A DNA stretch of 64,000 nucleotides from Minisyncoccota bacterium (lineage in GTDB: Bacteria; Patescibacteriota; Minisyncoccia; Phycocordibacterales; Zambryskibacteraceae), in the NCBI GenBank assembly GCA_025450175.1, contig JANWHY010000008.1, positions 56,289 through 120,288 on the forward strand. The letters run 5' to 3'. Positions 2,421 to 24,546 of this stretch are shown here, piece after piece. The notes beneath the pieces are model-generated. The model had not been told where the DNA came from. It ran no database searches and was given only the letters and a program-made list of their open reading frames with translations. A program made the translations under genes and the position numbers. How positions within the stretch are numbered: position 1 is the first letter of the stretch; each line of letters begins with the position of its first letter.

Positions 2421-3554
2421 TTAACTTCTTTTTATCTTTATAAACCGATGCTTACCTATGCGATAGACTCCTGGTTCCAATTCACTAATAGCTCCATCCT
2501 TCTCTAAGCGATTGAACTCTGTCTTAGATGCCACCAACCCATTTTCTAAAAGAATTTCAATAAGAGGCTTGCCACTAGTTACTTCTAGAATGTTTTCCGG
2601 CACTCCCCCCTTGGAGAAAGTGGATTCGAAGTTTTCTTGAACTTCGCGTGCAACATCTTGTGTGTTGAGTATAGAAACAATTTCAAACGCAAGGCGAGCC
2701 TTGGCTTCTTTAGGGTGACCACCTACTATTTCTCCCACCTCTTCCATTCCCACTCGAGTTAGACACTCGAAGCACTGACGCACAACATCATCAGGAAGAG
2801 CCATGATCTTCCCGTATAGATTGTTTGGATCATCTTGTAGAGCGATTACATTGCCCTCAGATTTGCCAATCTTATTACCTGAGCTGTCTGCAATAAGCGG
2901 CGTGGTCATTACAAATTTCTCTTTGCCCTTCATGGACTTTATGAGACCTCTACCTGCAAGCATGTTAAATGTCTGATCACTTCCACCCACTTCTAGATCT
3001 ACATCCAGAGCAACAGAGTCATAAGCTTGGAAAAATGGGTACAACACTTCTCTCATATTAAGACTCTCACCACTTTTAATCCGTTCTTGGAAAAGATCCC
3101 TTTCTGCTAACTGTTGCCAGGAGAAGTGCCCCGCAATTTCTAGAAACTCCGGAATAGTTAATTTATTTATCCAATCTGCATTAAACCGGACCTCAACAGG
3201 ATTCTCTCCATCAAACCTTATAATCTTTTCTGCCTGCAATACATAGTCTGTCGCATTCTGTCGTAACTCTTCTCTAGTAAAAAACTTTTCACGCGATTTT
3301 GTTTTTCCAGAAGGATCTCCGGCTTGCCCCGTACCATCCCCAATAAGGAAAACTACTTTGTGCCCAAGATCTTGCCAGTCTCGTAACTTCATTAATCCAA
3401 CCATATGACCCAAGTGGAGCTTGTCTCCAGTAGGATCGAAGCCTTGGTAGAGTTTGAGTTTCTTACCAGATGCCAAAACCTCTCTCAACTCATCTTTAGA
3501 GGGATAAATTTTGTCCACCCCGCGCGTGAGGAGCTCATCAATTTCCTTACTCAT
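2421..3554 (-). CDS. tyrS: tyrosine--tRNA ligase
   Basis: Class I HIGH motif as GFDPTGDKLHLGH, KMSKS-like KIGKSEGN, C-terminal S4-like domain; TyrRS rather than TrpRS by the HIGH-region pattern. Confidence 0.88.
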   Translation of the reverse strand: MSKEIDELLTRGVDKIYPSKDELREVLASGKKLKLYQGFDPTGDKLHLGHMVGLMKLRDWQDLGHKVVFLIGDGTGQAGDPSGKTKSREKFFTREELRQNATDYVLQAEKIIRFDGENPVEVRFNADWINKLTIPEFLEIAGHFSWQQLAERDLFQERIKSGESLNMREVLYPFFQAYDSVALDVDLEVGGSDQTFNMLAGRGLIKSMKGKEKFVMTTPLIADSSGNKIGKSEGNVIALQDDPNNLYGKIMALPDDVVRQCFECLTRVGMEEVGEIVGGHPKEAKARLAFEIVSILNTQDVAREVQENFESTFSKGGVPENILEVTSGKPLIEILLENGLVASKTEFNRLEKDGAISELEPGVYRIGKHRFIKIKRS

Positions 3555-3569
3555 ATCGTCAAATTTAGC

Positions 3570-5723
3570 ATGAAATATGCTAAAATGGCTATTCTAATGA
3601 TTTGGAAACTTCGCCATTCCAACCGCTTTTTGGCTATCGCGACCATCCTCCTGTTCGTGTGTGGGCTGTTCATCTTATGGACGGCTTCACTACGTATTCC
3701 AGCCCTGGAGGACATCTCAGAGAGGAAAATTGACCAATCCACCAAGATTTATGACCGTACAGGAGAGATCCTCCTATACGACATGGCTCGAGACACCCGC
3801 AGAGCCTTGATACCATTCGAAGATATTGCCTACAGCACCAAGGCTGCGACTCTGGCTATTGAAGATAGAAACTTCTATTCCCACGGAGGCTTCGAGTTCA
3901 AATCCTTCCTTCGAGCAGTGTTTGTAAACCTCACTAGCCTCTCATTCAGTCAGGGAGGCTCAACCATTACTCAGCAAGTAGTGAAGAACTCCATTCTCAC
4001 CAAAGACAAGACCCCTACTCGCAAACTTAAAGAACTGATCTTAGCTATAAAACTTGAGAAGGTCTTATCTAAAGATGAGATTCTATCTCTCTACCTCAAT
4101 GAGATCCCTTATGGTGGCACTATCTACGGCATAGAGGAAGCCTCGAGAAGCTTCTTTGCTAAGCCGGCTAAAGAGCTCACTCTGACTGAGTCCGCCTATC
4201 TTGCCTCTTTGCCTAAAGCCCCAACATATTACTCCCCGTATGGATCACACCGCGAAGACCTCGAGGCCAGAAAGAATCTCGTGTTACAGAGAATGCTTGA
4301 GAGCGGATTCATCACTAAAGAAGATTTTGATACAGCCGTGGCTGAGAAGGTTGAGTTCCAGCCGAAGCAAAACACAGGGAGTATCCGCGCCCCACACTTC
4401 GTTTTCTTTGTGATAGATCAATTGGCCAAAAAGTATGGTGAGGACACTCTCATCAATGGCGGCTTCAGGATTATTACCACACTCGATTACAATCTGCAGA
4501 AGGAGGCAGAGGCCAACGCCCTTTCTTATGGCAAAACTAATGCAGAGAAGTTTAATGGGACCAACAATGCCCTTGTGGCTATAGATCCGAAAACTGGAGA
4601 GATCTTGGCAATGGTGGGCTCTAGGAACTACTTCGACAAAGATATTGATGGCAACTTCAACGCCTCTATGGGCTTCCGCCAGCCAGGCTCAACCTTTAAA
4701 CCATTTGTCTACGCTACGATGTTTAACAAGGGCTACACAGACCAGACAGTTTTATATGATGTTCCTATCCAATTTGTGCCTAACTGTGCGCCCAACAACT
4801 TCGTAACCGACGATACCTGTTATGCCCCAGTAGACTACGACGGACGCTCAAGAGGTCCAATGACCATTAGAAATGCTTTGGCCCAATCAGTAAACGTTCC
4901 TGCAGTCCAAGGAGTCTACCTCGCTGGTGTGCGTGAGTCTATCTCTACAGCTAAGAGCATGGGTATCACTACCTTGAACGATCTCAGCCGCTACGGTCTC
5001 TCTATCGTCTTGGGAGGTGGCGAGGTGACCCTTCTGGATATGACCTCGGCTTACTCAGTGTTTGCAAATGATGGAGTTAGAAACCCTTACACCCCATACC
5101 TATGGGTTGAGGATGCTGATGGCAATATCATCGACCGCTACACCAACTCTCCCTCTCGAGTATTATCGACTGATACTGTGCGCCTGATGAACGATATTTT
5201 GTCCGACAACGTGGCTCGTACACCTGGCTTCGGCGCTAACTCTGCCCTGTACATCCCTGGGCGCCCGGTCGCAGTAAAAACAGGTACCTCCAACGACTAC
5301 CGCGATGCCTGGATTATTGGCTATACTCCAAACCTCGTTGTTGGTGCCTGGGTCGGTAACAATGACAACTCCCCTATGGCCAAGAGAGTCTCTGGTTTGG
5401 TTGTAGCCCCTATGTGGCACGCTTATATGGAGAAGATCCTACCCGAGATACCTGTAGAATACTTCACCTCACCAGAGCGAGAGGATCTTAGTTCTCTTAA
5501 GCCTGTATTACGTGGTGATTGGTCTACAGGAGGTATCCACTCCATTCTCTACTGGGTAGACAAGGACAATCCTCGCGGACCCGCGCCTTCCAATCCTAGT
5601 AACGATCCTCAATTTAAAAACTGGGAATACAGTATCAACCTATGGGGTCTAACAGCTGGCTTTACGACTGGTTCATCGGCATCACCAGATACAGGAAGCT
5701 CGAATCCCCTACCCCCTCAATAA
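3570..5723 (+). CDS. class A penicillin-binding protein (glycosyltransferase GT51 + transpeptidase)
   Basis: GT51 motif EDRNFYSHGG, transpeptidase SxxK (GSTFKP), KTGT (KTGTSND); N-terminal signal anchor; track ORF start 3405 overlaps tyrS, more likely start ATG 3570 (MKYAKMAILMIW). Confidence 0.9.
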   Translation: MKYAKMAILMIWKLRHSNRFLAIATILLFVCGLFILWTASLRIPALEDISERKIDQSTKIYDRTGEILLYDMARDTRRALIPFEDIAYSTKAATLAIEDRNFYSHGGFEFKSFLRAVFVNLTSLSFSQGGSTITQQVVKNSILTKDKTPTRKLKELILAIKLEKVLSKDEILSLYLNEIPYGGTIYGIEEASRSFFAKPAKELTLTESAYLASLPKAPTYYSPYGSHREDLEARKNLVLQRMLESGFITKEDFDTAVAEKVEFQPKQNTGSIRAPHFVFFVIDQLAKKYGEDTLINGGFRIITTLDYNLQKEAEANALSYGKTNAEKFNGTNNALVAIDPKTGEILAMVGSRNYFDKDIDGNFNASMGFRQPGSTFKPFVYATMFNKGYTDQTVLYDVPIQFVPNCAPNNFVTDDTCYAPVDYDGRSRGPMTIRNALAQSVNVPAVQGVYLAGVRESISTAKSMGITTLNDLSRYGLSIVLGGGEVTLLDMTSAYSVFANDGVRNPYTPYLWVEDADGNIIDRYTNSPSRVLSTDTVRLMNDILSDNVARTPGFGANSALYIPGRPVAVKTGTSNDYRDAWIIGYTPNLVVGAWVGNNDNSPMAKRVSGLVVAPMWHAYMEKILPEIPVEYFTSPEREDLSSLKPVLRGDWSTGGIHSILYWVDKDNPRGPAPSNPSNDPQFKNWEYSINLWGLTAGFTTGSSASPDTGSSNPLPPQ

Positions 5724-8835: not shown

Positions 8836-9549
8836 ATGTCCTTCCTTTATCACACCTTCTTCTTTGATCCACTTCTTAATATCTTAGTTCTTTTCTTTAA
8901 GACTCTACCCTTCCTTGATGCTGGGGTTATTGTGATCCTCTTCACGATACTTGTGCGTCTACTCATGTTTCCTCTCTCGCGCAAAGCCGTGCATACGCAA
9001 GTGAAGATGGCCGAGATTGGTCCAGATCTGGCACGGATCAAAGAGCAGTATAAAGATAAGATGGAGGAACAAGCCAAAAAAACTCTTGAGCTCTATCAAC
9101 AAAAAGGGGTTAACCCGTTCTCTGGGATTCTCGTGGTGATCATACAGATCCCCATAATCTTCGCTCTTTATCGGATCTTCCTACACTTCCCAGATGTTAA
9201 CCCAGCTTTCTTATATCACTTTGTTACTCAACCCGAACATTTGAATACCACCTTCTTAGGACTCTTTGATCTCACAGAAAAGAGCGTCATCCTTGCGGTA
9301 ATTGCAGCTATCTCTACCTTTTACCAGATTAGAATATCAACTAAGCACGCTCCTAAGCCCGAGAGTAACTCCTTTAGTGATAATCTCACTCGTAATATGC
9401 AAACCCAGATGAAGTACTTCTTCCCTGTGATTGTATTCTTCATCTCCTACTCTATCTCCGGAGCTATTGCACTCTACTGGCTCACTACAAATATCTTTTC
9501 CGCTATTCAAGAAACTTTTGTACGGAGAAGGCTCGCAGTCAAAAGCTAA
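8836..9549 (+). CDS. yidC: membrane protein insertase YidC/Oxa1 (short form)
   Basis: Multi-TM, conserved insertase core around NPFSGILVVIIQIPIIFALY; synteny rpmH-rnpA-yidC. Confidence 0.85.
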   Translation: MSFLYHTFFFDPLLNILVLFFKTLPFLDAGVIVILFTILVRLLMFPLSRKAVHTQVKMAEIGPDLARIKEQYKDKMEEQAKKTLELYQQKGVNPFSGILVVIIQIPIIFALYRIFLHFPDVNPAFLYHFVTQPEHLNTTFLGLFDLTEKSVILAVIAAISTFYQIRISTKHAPKPESNSFSDNLTRNMQTQMKYFFPVIVFFISYSISGAIALYWLTTNIFSAIQETFVRRRLAVKS

Positions 9550-9551
9550 AG

Positions 9552-10796
9552 CTATTTAAGTCTCAATGCCCAGAGGCTAAGGTCGCGCTTGTTGGTGAAG
9601 ATAAGATATTTTTCTTTTGGAGAAAGTTTGGGGTTAATTAGGTCGATGTCAGTACTTAGTTCTTGTTTGGGTTCTGCGAGAAGTTGAGCAATGTTTGAGG
9701 TAGTCTCAAACCTCCAAATGCGATCCGAGAACAGAGTCTCACCTCGATACCAACTATCCAAATTTTTTGGCACCAGGCCACTATTAGGAGATCCACAATA
9801 AACCACTTCGATTTCTACAGTACTCCAAATACATTTCTCAGCTAGCGTAGCTGAAGAAATTTCGGCATTAACATCTTTCTCTATATTGCGAGCCACTAGG
9901 TGTGTGGTGTTGCCGTCGCTGTAAGAATAGAGGACGCGACTACCAGAACTATTCGGTATTGCTACAAGTCCATTTAGAGGTCCAAGTAGTTTTGAGAGTG
10001 AGCCGCTCGAAGTATTGAGTCGGTACACTACGCCATCCGAGCTACTCTCAGCCTTGGGGTAGATAAGTACAATGTTGCCGCTGGCGGCGAGTCTCCAGTT
10101 GGTAAACTTAGATTCTAAAAGCGTTTTGGTATTGGCTCCGGTGAGAGTAGAGCTAACAATTCTAGCTGTGTCTGTAAGGGAGTAGATTAGAGTGTTGGAG
10201 GTGTCGAGAGCTACGCTACCGATCCGTCCACGGATCGGGGTGGCACTAACTGTATAGAAGTCTGTGGTTGTGCCTTGTTTGGGAGGAGTAAGGGCAATAG
10301 CCAAGTTCTCGATCTCGTCAGACTCGTCTCTAAGCGAGCGGAAAAGTGCTCCCGTACCGTCGTTTCGGAAGTAGGCCTCATAAGTCTTGGGCAAGGTGTT
10401 GTTGGTCAGGCGAGTCTTGGTAAAAGATTGAGAGCTTGTAGATATAGGGAGTACCACTTCATAGATATGCCCAGTTGCTCGCTCTGCGTATCTCACCACC
10501 ACATCGGTTCCTCTCTCGAAAATTACTGAGCCCGCGATAGGAGTATTGGCCAGGCGGAAAATATTTTTAGTTGGAGAGGAGAATTGATCGAATCCTGCCT
10601 CACCATTTTGTCCAGAACCGGACTCGTTCTGGTTCTGGGTTGTAGGAATATTAATATCCTCTCCAGATCCGAAGGGTAAACCATTCTCATCTAGAGAAAC
10701 TATTGGGTCCTCGGGTGTTTGGAAGAAGAAGTACCAAGCTCCTCCCGCAATAATAATGAGGAGTAGAAGGATCAAAATTAAATAAGTCTTTTTCAT
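9552..10796 (-). CDS. bitopic membrane protein, last gene of T4SS-like operon
   Basis: N-terminal TM MKKTYLILILLLLIIIAGGAWYFFF then a large extracytoplasmic S/T-rich domain; 3 nt after preceding gene. Confidence 0.6.
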   Translation of the reverse strand: MKKTYLILILLLLIIIAGGAWYFFFQTPEDPIVSLDENGLPFGSGEDINIPTTQNQNESGSGQNGEAGFDQFSSPTKNIFRLANTPIAGSVIFERGTDVVVRYAERATGHIYEVVLPISTSSQSFTKTRLTNNTLPKTYEAYFRNDGTGALFRSLRDESDEIENLAIALTPPKQGTTTDFYTVSATPIRGRIGSVALDTSNTLIYSLTDTARIVSSTLTGANTKTLLESKFTNWRLAASGNIVLIYPKAESSSDGVVYRLNTSSGSLSKLLGPLNGLVAIPNSSGSRVLYSYSDGNTTHLVARNIEKDVNAEISSATLAEKCIWSTVEIEVVYCGSPNSGLVPKNLDSWYRGETLFSDRIWRFETTSNIAQLLAEPKQELSTDIDLINPKLSPKEKYLIFTNKRDLSLWALRLK

Positions 10797-10799
10797 AAA

Positions 10800-11696
10800 T
10801 TAAAATGAGGCGTGCCAGTGATCATTGGTAGACGCAACTTCTCCCCCACACTTAGAACCTAGTGGTTCCCATAACCAGCGGCCACCTCCTGCTGAATATG
10901 TTTGGCAAGCTGATAGGGGAGCACTATTTGCAACTGTGCTATTTAATCTAATGTCTGAGCGTACATCTACAGCTATACCACTATAATGACTAGAACCTGT
11001 AGTGTGCCCACCCTCTGTGCCAGCAGTAATTACTATAGAACAATTACATGGAGTATTTCTTACAGCGACTAAGCCATTAATTACTGACGGTTGTAGGCCG
11101 TTAAGATTTACACAGTTTCTAGTTTGCCCTTCAATACAAGGTCCTCTGTAAGCACTTATACCAAAGGGTAACGATTGTCTAACTGCTGTATCAGCAGCTA
11201 TTTGTTCAGCTGTCATAGGTACACCTATTGTAGAGGCTCCGGTAGCTGGTGGATTATTAGGAATAGTTTGGCGTTCCAGCGTACTAAGATCGAAGTTAAC
11301 AAAAGGATTCTTATCATTTGGACTAATAGAATAGAGGATGAGCCATGCTCCGATCGCAAGGAGGAGTCCCCAGATAGCATTTGTGATTGTGCCCTTAGCA
11401 TTACCCTTCTCGGTAAAGGCCTCACTCGACATATACTTGATGCCTCCAATAATTATCATGAGCACAGCCAAGACTCCTGCAAGTGCGATGGTGAGCTTGA
11501 AGACTCCTACAAGATAAGCTGAAGCATTAGTCTTACATTCTGTATTGGCGGCACCAGTACATCCGCTTTCTTCCAAAGGAATAGGGGCAAGGAGATTGTA
11601 GTTAGTAGGTTGTGGAGTCTGGGCAAGGGCTCGCTCGGCATTCAGTAAGGATGTCGCACTTACTACTAACAACAAAAATGTAATTATTCTTATCAT
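10800..11696 (-). CDS. membrane-anchored M15/LAS-type peptidoglycan peptidase (VirB1/PrgK functional analogue)
   Basis: Signal peptide, two hydrophobic helices separated by a short loop (VirB2/TrbC-like topology), C-terminal domain with SSHYSGIAVDV (SxHxxGxAxD) and DHWHASF (E/D-x-W-H), the zinc motifs of VanY/M15 peptidases. Confidence 0.55.
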   Translation of the reverse strand: MIRIITFLLLVVSATSLLNAERALAQTPQPTNYNLLAPIPLEESGCTGAANTECKTNASAYLVGVFKLTIALAGVLAVLMIIIGGIKYMSSEAFTEKGNAKGTITNAIWGLLLAIGAWLILYSISPNDKNPFVNFDLSTLERQTIPNNPPATGASTIGVPMTAEQIAADTAVRQSLPFGISAYRGPCIEGQTRNCVNLNGLQPSVINGLVAVRNTPCNCSIVITAGTEGGHTTGSSHYSGIAVDVRSDIRLNSTVANSAPLSACQTYSAGGGRWLWEPLGSKCGGEVASTNDHWHASF

Positions 11697-12382
11697 AACG
11701 ATGGATTGACGCTACTTACATTCTTAAAGTTTATATTGAAGTTAGAGTGAGCATCTTGAGTGACGAGCTTAGAACTTCTTACCCTTAGAGATACTGTAGC
11801 TTCTCCTTCTGTATCCGCGGGGGCGCGATAGGTAACCATCCTAGTCTTACTCGTCTCTCCAGAGTTGGTCGTCCAGTTGTACTCTAGGTTGGAGTTACTA
11901 AAGAAGAGCGGGAAAGCTCCGAAGGTGACTTCTGCCCTCGGGAAGTTGTAGGTCTGTCTGACTGCTTCGTGGAACATGAAGCCATATAGAGGATTATCCT
12001 CAAATATGAGTAAGGAAGGAGCTTTGGGCACTATTATTATAGAGTTACTAGCTGCTACATTTTGCCCCGAGACTATCTCTAATCTAATCTCTTGAGGTCT
12101 TGAGAGGATGGAGTCGGTGTAGCTAATAGAAGAGCGACCAATGCCTGAGGCGTTGCCGAGTACCGTACCATTCCTAATCCAGCGGTAATTGAGGTTACTA
12201 GCACTACCAAGTCCAGTAGGCATAGCGACGAGAGTGATGGTCGATTCCTTAGACCACAGGCTCTTACCTAAGTAGAAGGGGGGTGTGTATGTCTCCCCTT
12301 GCCAGAGGATATCGACACTTTGAGCCCTTAGAAAGATAGGAGTAAGGAACAATAGAGAGAGTATTACAAAGAATTTCATCAT
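11693..12382 (-). CDS. secreted hypothetical protein of T4SS-like operon
   Basis: Cleavable signal peptide MMKFFVILSLLFLTPIFLRAQS; 4-nt overlaps with both neighbours. Confidence 0.6.
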   Translation of the reverse strand: MMKFFVILSLLFLTPIFLRAQSVDILWQGETYTPPFYLGKSLWSKESTITLVAMPTGLGSASNLNYRWIRNGTVLGNASGIGRSSISYTDSILSRPQEIRLEIVSGQNVAASNSIIIVPKAPSLLIFEDNPLYGFMFHEAVRQTYNFPRAEVTFGAFPLFFSNSNLEYNWTTNSGETSKTRMVTYRAPADTEGEATVSLRVRSSKLVTQDAHSNFNINFKNVSSVNPSL

Positions 12383-12735
12383 TTCATTATATCTAATTTT
12401 GTTATGCCTTCTCCAGGGATAACTTTCTTAAGCTTCTTACTCAGAGCCAGGTAACTTACGGCAGCAGTCCAGGCTGGTATTGAGGCAAGGAATGGGACTG
12501 GAATTATTTCTAGAAGAGAGGCCCCACCGAAGGCTAGGATCCTCTTTGGCTTAGTGAAACTTATGTTATAGAACTTAAACCAGACATAGAAAGTGAGTCC
12601 GGCGAAGATCCCCACCACCCATCCCATATAAATAAACCCGAGTAATATCTGGAGGAAGTCAAAGAAGACTGCCACCGCAATCATAAATACTACGGTATGA
12701 GACTTAATCTCCTTTTCTTCTTTATTGCCCCACAT
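12379..12735 (-). CDS. small polytopic membrane protein of T4SS-like operon
   Basis: 3-4 TM helices; track ORF to 12774 overlaps the VirB4 C-terminus, Met at 12735 (MWGNKEE) more plausible. Confidence 0.5.
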   Translation of the reverse strand: MWGNKEEKEIKSHTVVFMIAVAVFFDFLQILLGFIYMGWVVGIFAGLTFYVWFKFYNISFTKPKRILAFGGASLLEIIPVPFLASIPAWTAAVSYLALSKKLKKVIPGEGITKLDIMK

Positions 12736-14602
12736 TTTTAGCTTTGGCCTCTTGCATCTCCTTATATCTCGCAAGTTCTACGGCCTCCTTCTCTGCAATG
12801 GCCTCGCGCTTAGCTTGTTTGATAGCCAAGATCTGTCCAGGATCAGAGGTAATGATCTGGTCTTCGGTGTAGGAGGCAATGTTCTTGATAGCGACGTGCT
12901 TCAGGCCGGCGAAGAAGATGCCCTCACCCACATCGGACTCGAGTAAGAGGTACTTCTCCTCGTCGGTGAGGTTAAAAACCTTCTGCAACTCATCTATAGT
13001 AGTGGGAGATTGCTTGAGAAGCATCTGGATCGAAGAGTTGGTAATAATAGGCACACCATAAGGACTCTTGAGGAAGTCCCCCACATCTTGAGTAATAGTA
13101 GCTACTCCGAGGAAGTATTTGCGACCACGCTTGACGAGGCCCATGAGGAAGGAGGCTGTGTCCTCAGACTTCATCATCCACCAGGCTTCGTCGATGACGA
13201 GTAGGCGCTTCTTAAGATCCTTCCTAATAGCGTTCCAGATAAAGTGGGTCACGATGTACATGGCGATGGGCTTGAGCTCATCTTCCATATCGCGGAGAGA
13301 GAAGACCACAAACTTCTTATTGATATCGACGTTCGAAGGGCGGTTGATGAAGCCGGCCCAAGTACCCTTAGTATATTTAGATAATCTTTGTGCTAGTGAC
13401 TCCCCTCCGGACATGCCTGAGAGCACAAGTTCGAAGTCAGACATGAGTGGAGCTTCGACATTGGTGAAGTCGGAGTCAGCGGTAATATCTTTTAGCGCAT
13501 ATGTCTCGGTGATAGCGCGGTCGATGATGGCATCTTCTTCGGCAGTAAGACCACCCATCATAAGTCGGAAGAGACCTACGAGGTTGATGATGTTAGAACG
13601 GAGGATATTGGCCGCGCTCTCGTCGGGCCCGGGAGGGGCTAGGTCGAATGGGTTTATATGGTGCTCAGAGTTGAGAGAGATGTTGAAGTAGCGGCCACCA
13701 GTGGCATCGGCCATGTACTCATACTCTTTCTCAGGGTCGATGACGATGACCTCAGTATCAAACATTAAGGTACGCAAGATCTCGAGCTTAGTAGCATAAG
13801 ACTTACCAGCACCAGCCTTGGCGAACATTACAGAGTTATAGTTCTCAAGTGAGAAGCGGTCGAAGAGTACTAAGGATGAGTTGTGTCTGTTGATACCGTA
13901 GAGGATACCCTTATCAGAAGTTAGGTCGAAGGAGGTGAATGGAAAGAGTGATGAGAGAGGAGAAGAGTTGAGCTTGGAGTGTACACCGAGGAGGTCGTTG
14001 CCTAAGGGGAGGGTACTCTTATAACCTTGCTCTTGTTGGAAGAGAGCGGGCTTTACGTAAATTAATTTTGCCTCGAGGATTGACTTGATCTCGGACTCCA
14101 CCTTGTCGAGCTCTGCCTCAGACTCTCCATATATAGTCATATATAGACCGACGTCGAAGAGCTTCTCTTGAGCTTGTTGGAGTTGGTCGCGCAAATTCTC
14201 GAGATCTTGGTATGCGATATCGAGCATTGGGTCTCGGACTAAGCCCTTCTCTTCTCGGGAGTGGATCTGAGATTGTACCTCGGCAACCTTCCTCTGGAAT
14301 TGGCGTAGGACGCGCGCTGTCTCAATAGGATGGACGAAGATCGAGACGTCGAAGACCTTGTCCATATTTATAATAGGAGCAAACCAACCTTCTGTAAGAA
14401 AGCGTGGGTAAGAGATGACGAAGAAGGTGCGCAAGATCTTCTCGCCGAGGTTAATCTCCTTGGGGGTGATCTTCAATGCGGAGGGGGCAATGATGTCCTT
14501 AAGCTCCAAGGCGCCGGCCTCGAAAATCTCTTTCGGTAAGATCGAGCTAATATCCTGCTTAGCTTCTCCCTTCTTGCCTAAAATTTTGTCGAAAATTCCC
14601 AT
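12722..14602 (-). CDS. VirB4/TrbE/CagE-family type IV secretion ATPase (ATPase portion)
   Basis: Walker A FAKAGAGKSY, Walker B LLVIDEAWWMM, ~620 aa. Confidence 0.9.
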   Translation of the reverse strand: MGIFDKILGKKGEAKQDISSILPKEIFEAGALELKDIIAPSALKITPKEINLGEKILRTFFVISYPRFLTEGWFAPIINMDKVFDVSIFVHPIETARVLRQFQRKVAEVQSQIHSREEKGLVRDPMLDIAYQDLENLRDQLQQAQEKLFDVGLYMTIYGESEAELDKVESEIKSILEAKLIYVKPALFQQEQGYKSTLPLGNDLLGVHSKLNSSPLSSLFPFTSFDLTSDKGILYGINRHNSSLVLFDRFSLENYNSVMFAKAGAGKSYATKLEILRTLMFDTEVIVIDPEKEYEYMADATGGRYFNISLNSEHHINPFDLAPPGPDESAANILRSNIINLVGLFRLMMGGLTAEEDAIIDRAITETYALKDITADSDFTNVEAPLMSDFELVLSGMSGGESLAQRLSKYTKGTWAGFINRPSNVDINKKFVVFSLRDMEDELKPIAMYIVTHFIWNAIRKDLKKRLLVIDEAWWMMKSEDTASFLMGLVKRGRKYFLGVATITQDVGDFLKSPYGVPIITNSSIQMLLKQSPTTIDELQKVFNLTDEEKYLLLESDVGEGIFFAGLKHVAIKNIASYTEDQIITSDPGQILAIKQAKREAIAEKEAVELARYKEMQEAKAKNVGQ

Positions 14603-14606
14603 AATA

Positions 14607-15263
14607 TTATGCTATCTTTATTGGCTTCTCTGTCTCGCCAGGGTTAAAGGCTTTGTAGAAAAGCTCGATCACTTCTTCTGTACCAAGGCGAGCGACTCGG
14701 ATACCACTTCTTACCAAACCTTGCTCGACCACGGACATGCGCTCTTCGAGCTGGGTGCGGTTCTCATCGAAGCCGCTACTCGAGACTCCCGCGGAGGTCT
14801 CTGTCTTCTTGCCCAGCCCGAATTGCGCCGCGAGACCCTTGAGCCCACTCTCTCCCCCAGTTGAGCCGAGTACTGCCGGGGTATAAGGCACGACGATAAA
14901 GAAGTTCTTGGTCATGATGTTGGTGCTCTCAGTAAAACTTCGTACGAACTCAATATATTCTCGCACTTGGATCTTCATGAGGTTATTGGTTTGGGCCTTC
15001 TCTTGCCCTTCGAGTAGTGCAATGTATGGGCGGATGTCGAGCTTCCGCGACTGGATGACTATCTCTATAGAGAAGTCGAGTGAGTTGAGGAAGTCTTGGA
15101 ACTGGAGGAGGATGGCATTCTTCTCATCCTCAGACTTCAGAGAGAAGTTGAGAGAAGAACACAAGAGGAGAGCACGCATGCTGTCATCCTTGAGTACGAT
15201 GATGCCATCCTTAACCTCTTTTATGGGCACAAACTCTTGAGTTGCGTTAGTTTTCTCAGCCAT
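14607..15263 (-). CDS. hypothetical protein, possibly the detached N-terminal domain of VirB4
   Basis: 218 aa soluble protein ending 4 nt before the VirB4 ATPase start, different frame; 218+626 aa approximates a full-length VirB4. Confidence 0.55.
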   Translation of the reverse strand: MAEKTNATQEFVPIKEVKDGIIVLKDDSMRALLLCSSLNFSLKSEDEKNAILLQFQDFLNSLDFSIEIVIQSRKLDIRPYIALLEGQEKAQTNNLMKIQVREYIEFVRSFTESTNIMTKNFFIVVPYTPAVLGSTGGESGLKGLAAQFGLGKKTETSAGVSSSGFDENRTQLEERMSVVEQGLVRSGIRVARLGTEEVIELFYKAFNPGETEKPIKIA

Positions 15264-15284: not shown

Positions 15285-15719
15285 TTACTCCGAAATCTTA
15301 TCCTTAGTGACAGGATTTTGATTACTTTGGAGATCTAATTGCCAAGTAAGGTCTTTGAGCTTCGAATCTGAGAGCTTAGGCACGTATACTTGCTCTATGT
15401 CTGCGTCACCTTCTTCTCCTCTAGTTCTTATTACGGTCTTCTCCTCCTTCTTCCAAATATAAAGTTTGTTAGTGGTGTGGAACTTGAGAAAAGCCTCGAC
15501 CATATTAATGAAGGGTTTGTCATTTACCTTGTAGAAAGCTAGGGCTGCACCGAAGAGGATGGCCGGTAAGGCCAAGAGTATAGCTATAAACTTGGGTAGG
15601 ATGAGGAAGAGGACAACAGCCACAGCCACTCCTCCACCCACGTAGATAAACTGTTTAAAGGTCAGTGGACCAAATATCTTATCTTCTACTTCTATAAATT
15701 GTGGTACCTGGAATCTCAT
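15285..15719 (-). CDS. VirB3-like small two-TM protein
   Basis: 144 aa, two adjacent TM helices (GGGVAVAVVLFLILPKFIAILLALPAILFGAALAF), positioned just upstream of VirB4 as VirB3/PrgI-like proteins are. Confidence 0.5.
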   Translation of the reverse strand: MRFQVPQFIEVEDKIFGPLTFKQFIYVGGGVAVAVVLFLILPKFIAILLALPAILFGAALAFYKVNDKPFINMVEAFLKFHTTNKLYIWKKEEKTVIRTRGEEGDADIEQVYVPKLSDSKLKDLTWQLDLQSNQNPVTKDKISE

Positions 15720-23631: not shown

Positions 23632-24546
23632 TTGGTTTTCGCTCGAAGTCAGGGGTTTAAGCTCTTTCTTGCTCCAGAGATAACTAGTCTCGGGAACTCT
23701 CAGACTATGAGCTTGCTTGAAGGCTATTTGAATATTAATCCTACCGGTACGGGTGGAGCTGAGATCGCTATCGTCGACGATGTGGCTCTAGCTTCTGGAG
23801 GTGGAGATAGTGAGGTATTCGTCGACCCAGGTAAGTCGGGCAATGGCCAGATTAGTGTCTATATAGTGCGTGAGGGAGATACCTTGAGTGGTATCGCCAA
23901 GATGTTTGATGTTTCGGTCAATACTATTATGTGGGCTAATGGTATCGGTGGGAGTTCTCTCAAGGCTGGTCAGGAGCTCGTCATTCTCCCTATCTCAGGT
24001 GTGCGTCACACGGTAAAGTCGGGAGACACCCTCCAATCTCTTGCCAAGAAGTACAAAGCCGATCTTGGCGACATTATCTCCTACAACGGACTCTCGACTG
24101 GCGCCACTCTTAAGACTGGTGATGTGATCATAATCCCCGACGGAGTGATCGCGGCCCCACAATCTTCTGGAGGTTCGGGTGGATCCAATACTCCTTCTTA
24201 TGCTGGCTTCTATCTACGCCCCATTAACGGCGGCAAGAAGAGTCAAGGTATACATGGACACAATGGTATCGATCTTGCTGCTCCTGTAGGTACCTCCGTG
24301 CGTGCGAGTGCTGGTGGTAAGGTAATTATTTCTAAAAAGAGTGGTTACAACGGCGGTTATGGAACATATATCGTCATTAGCCACTCCAATGGTACTCAAA
24401 CAGTCTATGGACACTTAAATACTAACAATGTTTCGGTTGGCGAGATGGTAAGCCAGGGCCAAGTGATCGGCGCTATAGGTATGACTGGTAAAACTACTGG
24501 ACCCCACCTCCACTTCGAAGTTCGTGGTGCTAAAAATCCTTTCTAG
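23632..24546 (+). CDS. LysM-domain M23 family peptidoglycan endopeptidase
   Basis: Two LysM repeats (YIVREGDTLSGIAK, HTVKSGDTLQSLAK), M23 motifs HNGIDLAAPVGT and GPHLHFEV; annotated start is TTG. Confidence 0.85.
   Translation: MVFARSQGFKLFLAPEITSLGNSQTMSLLEGYLNINPTGTGGAEIAIVDDVALASGGGDSEVFVDPGKSGNGQISVYIVREGDTLSGIAKMFDVSVNTIMWANGIGGSSLKAGQELVILPISGVRHTVKSGDTLQSLAKKYKADLGDIISYNGLSTGATLKTGDVIIIPDGVIAAPQSSGGSGGSNTPSYAGFYLRPINGGKKSQGIHGHNGIDLAAPVGTSVRASAGGKVIISKKSGYNGGYGTYIVISHSNGTQTVYGHLNTNNVSVGEMVSQGQVIGAIGMTGKTTGPHLHFEVRGAKNPF

Follow-up and report, generated by a model that had tools for sequence, protein, structure and literature searches.

A VirB2-like pilin with a fused, putative peptidoglycan peptidase domain in a type IV secretion operon of a Minisyncoccota bacterium

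The pilin fusion gene

The 64,000-nucleotide stretch of a Minisyncoccota genome considered here (assembly GCA_025450175.1, contig JANWHY010000008.1), referred to as the window, encodes an unusual pilin-like protein in an operon encoding a type IV secretion system (T4SS). The open reading frame (ORF) lies at positions 10800-11696 on the minus strand, starts with ATG and encodes 298 amino acids. Its coordinates agree exactly with those of an earlier sequence-only reading, which had described the product as a two-helix, pilin-like anchor fused to a VanY/M15-type zinc peptidase. The single polypeptide is predicted to combine a Sec signal peptide, a VirB2-type two-helix pilin, a linker some 35 residues long and a roughly 140-residue, cysteine-rich zinc hydrolase domain. 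The features of the gene are:

11622..11696, minus strand: signal peptide, residues 1-25 (MIRIITFLLLVVSATSLLNAERALA), predicted cleavage ALA-QT; hydrophobic N-terminus with a Kyte-Doolittle value of 1.92
11517..11621, minus strand: mature N-terminal exposed segment, residues 26-60, with the motif Y33-x-x-L36-A-P38-x-P40
11325..11516, minus strand: VirB2-like pilin hairpin; transmembrane (TM) helix TM1 61-89, loop 90-106, TM2 107-124
11217..11324, minus strand: flexible P/T/G/N-rich linker, residues 125-160 (pLDDT 45-63; 143-154 below 50)
10803..11216, minus strand: C-terminal LAS / Hedgehog-DD-peptidase-like domain ("type A"), residues 161-298
10962..11006, minus strand: catalytic-site block G-G-H231 ... 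S-S-H237-Y-S-G-I-A-V-D244 (H-x6-D)
10866..10868, minus strand: E277, candidate general base and counterpart of Shh E177, closing strand 272-277 in the manner of Shh "...YYE"
10812..10823, minus strand: D292-H293-W294-H295, the H-x-H element in the last β-strand

The N-terminal half

A signal peptide followed by two hydrophobic helices with a 17-residue loop had been noted before, and this layout is borne out by the Kyte-Doolittle profile, the cleavage site and structure prediction. Hydrophobic stretches (Kyte-Doolittle >1.6) are found at about residues 61-89 and 107-124, with the loop SSEAFTEKGNAKGTITN between them, and AlphaFold2 returns a helical hairpin with helices 58-90 and 94-124. The signal peptidase A-x-A site was read by hand (-3/-1 rule), and at least 90% of the aligned family members keep A25. 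Residues 65-122 match Pfam T4SS_pilin (PF18895) with 27.6 bits (E 3e-6), above the gathering threshold of 26.6, and the NCBIfam Mbov_0395 pilin-like model also matches the hairpin (E 2e-4); the match to TrbC (PF04956) remains below threshold (13.5 vs. 27.9 bits, E 0.087). The homologues belong to Zambryskibacteria, Paceibacterota, Minisyncoccia and Parcubacteria. Every one of the 36 close homologues passes the PF18895 threshold, as do 122 of 130 distant homologues, and 17 of the 36 also match the TrbC/VirB2 model. Residues Y33, L36, P38 and P40 are invariant in the 36 homologues, and their motif is retained both in stand-alone pilins and in pilins that carry a different C-terminal domain (type B, see below).

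Of the "pilin-like anchor" proposed earlier the hairpin stands, while the notion of a mere anchor does not. The PF18895 threshold is passed, a hidden Markov model (HMM) scan of every ORF in the window found no second pilin gene, and stand-alone pilins of 127-154 residues are 55-60% identical to the N-terminal half; the protein is therefore better described as a pilin with an added module than as an enzyme with an anchor. As judged from sequence, the N-terminal half is a true VirB2-like pilin module. Because a signal peptide is followed by two TM helices, and all eight cysteines of the protein fall in predicted external segments, the hairpin is expected to be N-out/C-out, which would place the C-terminal domain outside the membrane. 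The connecting linker varies in both sequence and length among homologues.

Conserved residues of the C-terminal domain

Both motifs quoted in the sequence-only reading are present: SSHYSGIAVDV at residues 235-245 and DHWHASF at residues 292-298. The interpretation of the second as E/D-x-W-H has to be revised, since D292 is variable and the real element is H293-W294-H295 (H-x-H). The S.H..G.A.D pattern occurs a single time among the 127,996 six-frame residues of the window, in this protein, and was seen in 12 of 200,000 shuffles of its sequence. A chance motif was rejected on account of this uniqueness and because the residues show no variation over 130 clusters.

In 36 full-length homologues T227, H231, H237, D244, E277, H293 and W294 are invariant. 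Across 130 representatives of clusters at 50% identity, the invariant set consists of C187, C195, H231, H237, D244 and H293, while a further five residues (C217, C219, E228, E277 and W294) reach at least 90% conservation. At position 295, 111 of 136 representatives have H and 18 have D. The H-x6-D, Glu and H-x-H zinc-site signature of LAS / Hedgehog-DD-peptidases is present and conserved across the family. This combination defines the Hh/DD-peptidases, and the counterparts in Shh are H141, D148, E177 and H183 (PMC6027127). The domain-only model reaches a pLDDT of 93.3 and a pTM of 0.88 and shows, in order, a strand, a loop with H231 and H237, a strand with D244, a helix, a strand ending in E277, and a last strand with H293-W-H295, each residue falling on the secondary-structure element expected for it. 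Many family members have a 15-residue insertion between the Glu and the H-x-H element.

One clade (18 of the 136 representatives; for example P0052, P0067, P0068, P0073, P0076 and P0081) has H-W-D instead of H-W-H and SATGG.H instead of GGTEGGH, and is without the C187/C195 pair. These proteins may have a variant metal site or a different specificity.

Family assignment of the C-terminal domain

The description as a "VanY/M15-type" peptidase survives in part: the LAS-type zinc-hydrolase signature is there, but membership of the VanY/M15 family itself does not hold. The target matches Peptidase_M15_4 (PF13539) over profile positions 3-68 of 70 with only 12.7 bits against a cut-off of 25 (E 0.2), and in HMM searches against the M15 and VanY families it and all tested relatives stay below the gathering thresholds; the label "VanY-type DD-carboxypeptidase" was dropped on this account. 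VanY (PF02557) matches one relative only, P0013 (12.5 bits, E 0.13). Among the 36 close members, seven match Peptidase_M15_4 at E <=1 (best E 7.4e-5) and two match HH_signal; NCBIfam gave a single vanXY match, in one member (E 0.067). LAS families are the only recurring enzyme families on the C-terminal domain that share fold and catalytic motif; the remaining weak matches are to membrane-protein models or unrelated singletons. No match to SLT, CHAP, NlpC/P60 or M23 domains was found in the target at E <=1. A homologue with 49% identity is named "Peptidase M15B domain-containing protein" in UniRef.

In profile searches of the PDB, Shh and Ihh are the top matches of the type A domain (E 0.12), with GGH / SxH / AVD aligned to Shh GHH / SLH141 / AVD148. 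The type A and type B profiles, which are independent, both place Shh-N first and align the same catalytic residues. A phmmer search of the PDB with the target protein gave no match. The solved folds closest to the domain model are Shh-N (listed values 6.6 and 6.2), Drosophila Hh (6.0) and the Streptomyces Zn DD-peptidase 1lbu (5.8), followed by VanXYc (5.5), the VldE C-domain (5.4), VanX (5.2) and VanYB (5.1); the lowest listed values, 4.1-4.7, belong to the LysB4, MepA, T5, Ply500, RB49 and LdcB peptidases. The defensible assignment is that of a divergent, uncurated new family of the LAS / Hedgehog-DD-peptidase superfamily.

The pilin position in the secretion operon

The T4SS operon is a tightly packed series of minus-strand genes running down from UvrD and KsgA. 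It begins with three unknown proteins (258, 306 and 771 amino acids), a 285-amino-acid protein, a PrgI/VirB3-like protein and a TrsD/TraC-like protein, and continues with VirB4, a 131-amino-acid membrane protein, a 229-amino-acid secreted protein, the target and a 414-amino-acid protein. The placement in a T4SS-like operon claimed earlier is thereby supported by VirB4, TrsD/TraC-like and PrgI/VirB3 genes in the same minus-strand operon. The target lies two genes downstream of VirB4, with reading frames that overlap or abut: its ATG and the stop codon of the preceding gene share bases (ATGA), and the downstream gene begins 3 nt past its own stop. The window is chromosomal and near the replication origin, encoding RuvB, YebC, TyrS/TrpS, a class A penicillin-binding protein (PBP), DnaN, DnaA and YidC. 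Synteny of the T4SS operon is kept in eight related loci. The neighbouring genes that define the position of the pilin are:

15285..15719, minus strand: PrgI family (VirB3-like); Pfam PF12666, E 4.4e-13, 50 bits vs. cut-off 27
14607..15263, minus strand: TrsD/TraC-like, N-terminal VirB4 part as its own gene; NCBIfam VirB4_plasma E 1.4e-12 and TrsD E 8.6e-5, both below cut-off
12722..14602, minus strand: VirB4-like ATPase, CD1110 family; NCBIfam NF045971 E 4e-111, 372.5 bits vs. cut-off 325; Pfam P-loop_TraG E 4e-25
11693..12382, minus strand: 229-amino-acid upstream operon partner, unknown function, secreted; no significant family match; syntenic in related loci
9552..10796, minus strand: 414-amino-acid downstream operon partner, unknown function, N-terminal TM helix; no Pfam match; syntenic in all related loci (365-421 amino acids)

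Related loci (L numbers) and proteins (P numbers) differ in what the pilin at this position carries. A type A profile search of 1.84 billion representatives retrieved 2,632 clusters at E <=0.001 and 1,874 at E <=1e-10. The combination of pilin and type A domain occurs in 126 of the 136 new top-ranked representatives, the exceptions being fragments, a few stand-alone domains, and P0199 and P0251. The last two (343 and 382 amino acids) have no pilin and consist of a TM helix, an SLT lytic transglycosylase domain (PF01464, E 1.6e-8 and 7.6e-13, respectively) and then the type A domain. P0251 (L004:2748-3896) is encoded on a short contig of small unannotated ORFs, one with a weak Flp1_like match.

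Among 120 listed matches to the full protein, 71 carry type A and 45 carry a second domain, type B, with the pattern VTESYPP..H..CHxNGTCVD ... FE ... GEHF[HS] and no Pfam match. In an hhalign comparison of types B and A the H..CH..G.CVD block is linked (probability 59%, E 9e-5). Against the PDB, the type B profile places Shh-N first at an E value of 0.66, which is not significant alone; its VTE, H, CH, VD and E are aligned to Shh VTEG, H, H141, D148 and E177. Type B pilins occupy the same syntenic slot in L006 and L007. Over residues 6-137 the target shares 55% identity with the type B pilin P0086; past that point the two cannot be aligned. In L010 and L011 a bare 127-amino-acid pilin sits in the slot, between orthologues of the 229- and 414-amino-acid proteins (45 and 44.5% identity, respectively, to those of L010). 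In L005 (GCA_016185455.1, Candidatus Zambryskibacteria) the slot contains two pilins, one with an HExxH-containing domain and one of type B. Since P0086 can be aligned over its pilin half only, the slot appears to hold a conserved pilin with a swappable module; across the loci compared, it is in terms of sequence a conserved pilin whose C-terminal enzyme module is exchangeable or absent.

The HExxH protein of L005 (P0090, 418 amino acids, L005:8667-9923) is encoded directly upstream of the type B pilin and has a C-terminal part of about 280 residues with HExxH in the sequence SLVHEIVHV, an indication that the pilin can be fitted with enzyme modules of other kinds as well. In L009 (5974-7860, Candidatus Paceibacterota isolate LejiaC_44_66) a 628-amino-acid frame comprises a pilin, an insertion of about 300 residues and a type B-like domain, making it an extended form of the modular pilin.

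Comparison with known systems

The T4SS of Patescibacteria are MPF-FATA-like, have VirB2-like pilins, often adjoin dnaA and usually lack VirB1, according to the survey by Quinonero-Coronel et al. (2025, PMC12102498). The target agrees with these systems in belonging above threshold to the same Pfam family as their pilins (PF18895), with signal peptide and hairpin (PMC12102498; Wang et al., 2023, PMC10633639), and in lying near virB4 and dnaA together with PrgI and TrsD. No relaxase was found in the stretch examined, as in the clusters described. The pilins described there are small and often arranged in arrays, whereas the target is a single 298-amino-acid gene of which more than half is linker and enzyme; the available portions of PMC12102498 and PMC10633639 contain no mention of a C-terminal enzyme domain on pilins.

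With the VirB1-like hydrolases of monoderm systems (TraG of pIP501, PrgK, CwlT and TcpG) the target shares a putative wall enzyme that is encoded in the T4SS operon and held at the membrane. These hydrolases, as treated in PMC12102498, combine an SLT or muramidase domain with CHAP or NlpC/P60, and the SLT plus peptidase layout of P0199 and P0251 repeats this two-domain arrangement. In contrast, the enzyme class of the target would be that of a LAS zinc enzyme and not of a cysteine peptidase or lytic transglycosylase, and its membrane element is the pilin itself instead of a plain TM anchor.

Compared with the LAS / Hedgehog-DD-peptidases (MEROPS M15: Streptomyces albus DD-peptidase 1lbu, VanX, VanY, VanXY and the phage T5/Ply500 L-Ala-D-Glu peptidases; Shh-N), the target lies below all curated HMM thresholds, and the type A family differs in its extra conserved cysteines (C187, C195, C217 and C219), in the frequent insertion before H-x-H and in the H-W-D variant of one clade. 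The closest parallel in design is provided by the modular type IV pilins PilB and PilC of Streptococcus sanguinis, in which a C-terminal module is likewise grafted onto a filament subunit and is exchangeable between relatives (PMC8179133). Unlike those, the target comes from the unrelated VirB2/T4SS system and its module is a predicted enzyme rather than a binding domain; its display on a filament is hypothetical.

Proposed function and alternatives

The target is probably a modular T4SS pilin that displays a peptidoglycan peptidase, a proposal held with moderate confidence. The precursor would be inserted by Sec/YidC and cut after ALA25, and the hairpin, in its N-out/C-out orientation, would leave the linker and the enzyme domain external to the membrane. 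There, Zn2+ would be held by H237, D244 and H295 (Asp in the H-W-D clade), and E277, H293 and H231 would activate water and stabilize the transition state, as in DD-peptidases and Shh. The enzyme could then cleave the stem peptides or cross-links of peptidoglycan at the very site where the pilin is handled by the VirB4-driven machine, acting from a membrane pool or, if a pilus forms, on the polymerized pilin. A role directed at a cell wall is suggested by P0199 and P0251, in which this domain is joined to an SLT lytic transglycosylase. The wall penetration put forward in the sequence-only reading is a plausible hypothesis. Which wall would be attacked divides the proposal about equally: the own wall, in the manner of VirB1, or that of a host, as a displayed weapon. 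The absence or exchange of the domain in close relatives leans toward the host, and the general lack of VirB1 in these genomes leans toward the own wall.

Several results weigh against this proposal. No tested member reaches the curated Pfam M15 threshold (the best relative, P0010, has 23.7 bits vs. 25), and Peptidase_M15_4 is matched at E <=0.1 in only 2 of 130 distant members. In the hhalign comparison with Shh-N only the H..H..D block of the family is aligned, with a probability of 16%. The broad 130-sequence profile A5 finds nothing in the PDB, where the narrower profiles A2 and A4 are more informative. PHROGs gave no match, including none of endolysin type. Foldseek searches of the PDB with the full-length and domain models returned nothing significant and no LAS protein in the top 50, the full-length results being dominated by the helical hairpin (histidine kinases and membrane subunits). 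In L010 and L011, neither a type A nor a type B domain is encoded within 8 kb on either side of the bare pilin; close relatives that keep the operon without the domain imply that it is not an obligatory T4SS assembly factor. A separate LysM-LysM-Peptidase_M23 protein of the DipM/MepM type is encoded at 23632-24546 on the plus strand of the window, about 9 kb from virB4, and could be an alternative candidate for wall remodelling. A T4SS review credits the pilins of Patescibacteria with no more than a "potential to elaborate conjugative pili" (PMC12857230).

The M23+LysM protein of the window could be the "VirB1-associated" hydrolase counted in HMM surveys of Paceibacteria.

The host-directed form of the proposal can be put more specifically, as a possibility that is tentative at best: in T4SS pilins of the Paceibacteria type, the C-terminus would serve as a swap-in cargo site for extracellular enzymes, filled by either of two divergent LAS-like peptidase families, by an HExxH domain or by nothing, the cargo being displayed on or delivered by the T4SS pilus in order to breach the wall of the host bacterium that the epibiont feeds on. 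In type VI secretion systems (T6SS), "evolved" VgrG/PAAR spikes carry C-terminal effector domains. If the cargo-site idea is true, the target would be an "evolved pilin" weapon analogous to these effectors, and a concrete biochemical activity could be assigned to the essential but functionally unexplained T4SS of Patescibacteria.

About equally doubtful is a substitute for VirB1, in which the fused peptidase locally opens the producer's own peptidoglycan for the T4SS channel or pilus and the hairpin does no more than recruit it to the site of assembly. A VirB1 homologue is absent from most Patescibacteria genomes that have VirB2-like pilins, and the authors of PMC12102498 allow for other hydrolases in that role. 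The organism makes peptidoglycan, as indicated by the class A PBP at 3405-5723; a linker of about 35 residues could span from membrane to wall; and the fusions of SLT and type A resemble the monoderm VirB1-like enzymes. However, the orthologous operons with a bare pilin and no such domain nearby do not fit a substitute of this kind, nor does the exchange of the C-terminal domain among type A, type B and HExxH while the pilin half stays about 55% identical, which is unexpected if the substrate is the cell's own, presumably conserved, wall. The M23+LysM endopeptidase near the operon also counts against it.

A non-catalytic adhesin or ligand, with a Hedgehog-like domain that binds peptidoglycan or another glycan or protein of the host surface at the pilus, appears improbable. 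The nearest solved folds are indeed those of Hedgehog N-domains, whose signalling works through binding, modular type IV pilins are an established case of binding modules being grafted on (PMC8179133), and no adhesins were detected in Patescibacteria T4SS loci (PMC12102498). Against it stands the retention of catalytic residues beyond the metal ligands, since across about 130 diverse clusters H231, H237, D244 and H293 do not vary and E277 is kept in at least 90%; in Drosophila Hh, whose peptidase activity is presumed lost, these residues have disappeared as well (PMC6027127). The SLT fusion in P0199 and P0251 likewise points to wall degradation instead of adhesion.

More unlikely still is a protease directed at proteins, which would cut its own pilin linker during maturation or release, or host surface proteins, and not peptidoglycan. 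Diderm VirB2/TrbC pilins undergo C-terminal trimming, and a paralogous pilin in a related genome bears HExxH, a motif typical of protein-cleaving metalloproteases; Shh-N, moreover, has an intrinsic "cannibalistic" peptidase activity (PMC6027127). Yet the characterized bacterial LAS/M15 enzymes among the structural matches (DD-peptidase, VanX/Y, MepA, phage L-Ala-D-Glu peptidases and LdcB) all act on peptidoglycan peptides, the variable linker shows no conserved cleavage motif, and stand-alone pilins, which stop right after TM2, need no such protease. A housekeeping membrane-anchored carboxypeptidase apart from the T4SS was rejected, since the N-terminal half is by all indications a genuine pilin, the gene keeps its place in the T4SS operon and the domain occurs almost only on pilins.

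Other features of the operon

VirB4 is split in the window: the 218-amino-acid TrsD/TraC-like protein corresponds to the N-terminal part, and the 626-amino-acid ATPase matches its model from position 183 on. The split is also kept in related loci, where the TrsD/TraC-like orthologue matches PF26593 (TraC-like). The yidC gene (plus strand) ends at 9549 and converges with the final gene of the T4SS operon, which ends at 9552 on the minus strand; with 2 nt between their stop codons there is no space for separate terminators.

The orientation of prgI varies among loci. It lies on the strand opposite to the rest of the T4SS operon in L001-L003 (L001:6020-6451) and is co-directional in the window (15285-15719) and in L005-L007, with proteins that are closely similar by eye. 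No convincing inverted repeats of the invertase type flank the inverted prgI of L001.

Small genes matching PF05635 (23S_rRNA_IVP) are present in L005 (13123-13503 and 4628-4987), L010 (7882-8205) and L011 (6026-6388), with PF22296 (bAvd) matched in one case. They are located in or just after the T4SS operon, adjoining the gene for the partner of about 400 amino acids, a place where the window has none. Proteins of the bAvd type accompany diversity-generating retroelements. Toxin-antitoxin genes (RelB with YafQ/ParE; PemK) are inserted in the T4SS operon of relatives (L010:4930-5473, L011:3074-3617 and L005:3186-3509); the operon in the window is without these insertions.

Significance

Both halves of the protein have been annotated automatically and separately, as "pilin" (NCBI) and as "Peptidase M15B domain-containing" (UniRef). 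No discussion of a fusion between a VirB2-type pilin and a hydrolase was found in the available portions of PMC12102498, PMC12857230 and PMC10633639 or by full-text literature searches. As far as the literature searched extends, the target would be the first known case of a catalytic module grafted onto a VirB2-type pilin; for the concept there is a precedent in the modular type IV pilins (PMC8179133). The domain family is large, with about 2,600 clusters at 50% identity, and neither Pfam nor NCBIfam nor PHROGs has a model that detects it at threshold.

The T4SS of Patescibacteria is widespread, often located by oriC, devoid of relaxases and essential for epibiotic growth in the one species tested, and its role is not known (PMC12102498, PMC10633639, PMC12857230). 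A pilin with a probable external peptidoglycan peptidase would offer a testable handle on this system, since it predicts an activity, a substrate (the own or the host wall) and a location (the pilus or the assembly site). If the proposal is true, the fusion would account for the lack of a recognizable VirB1 in most of these genomes, and the swapping of modules at an orthologous position may reflect adaptation to different hosts.

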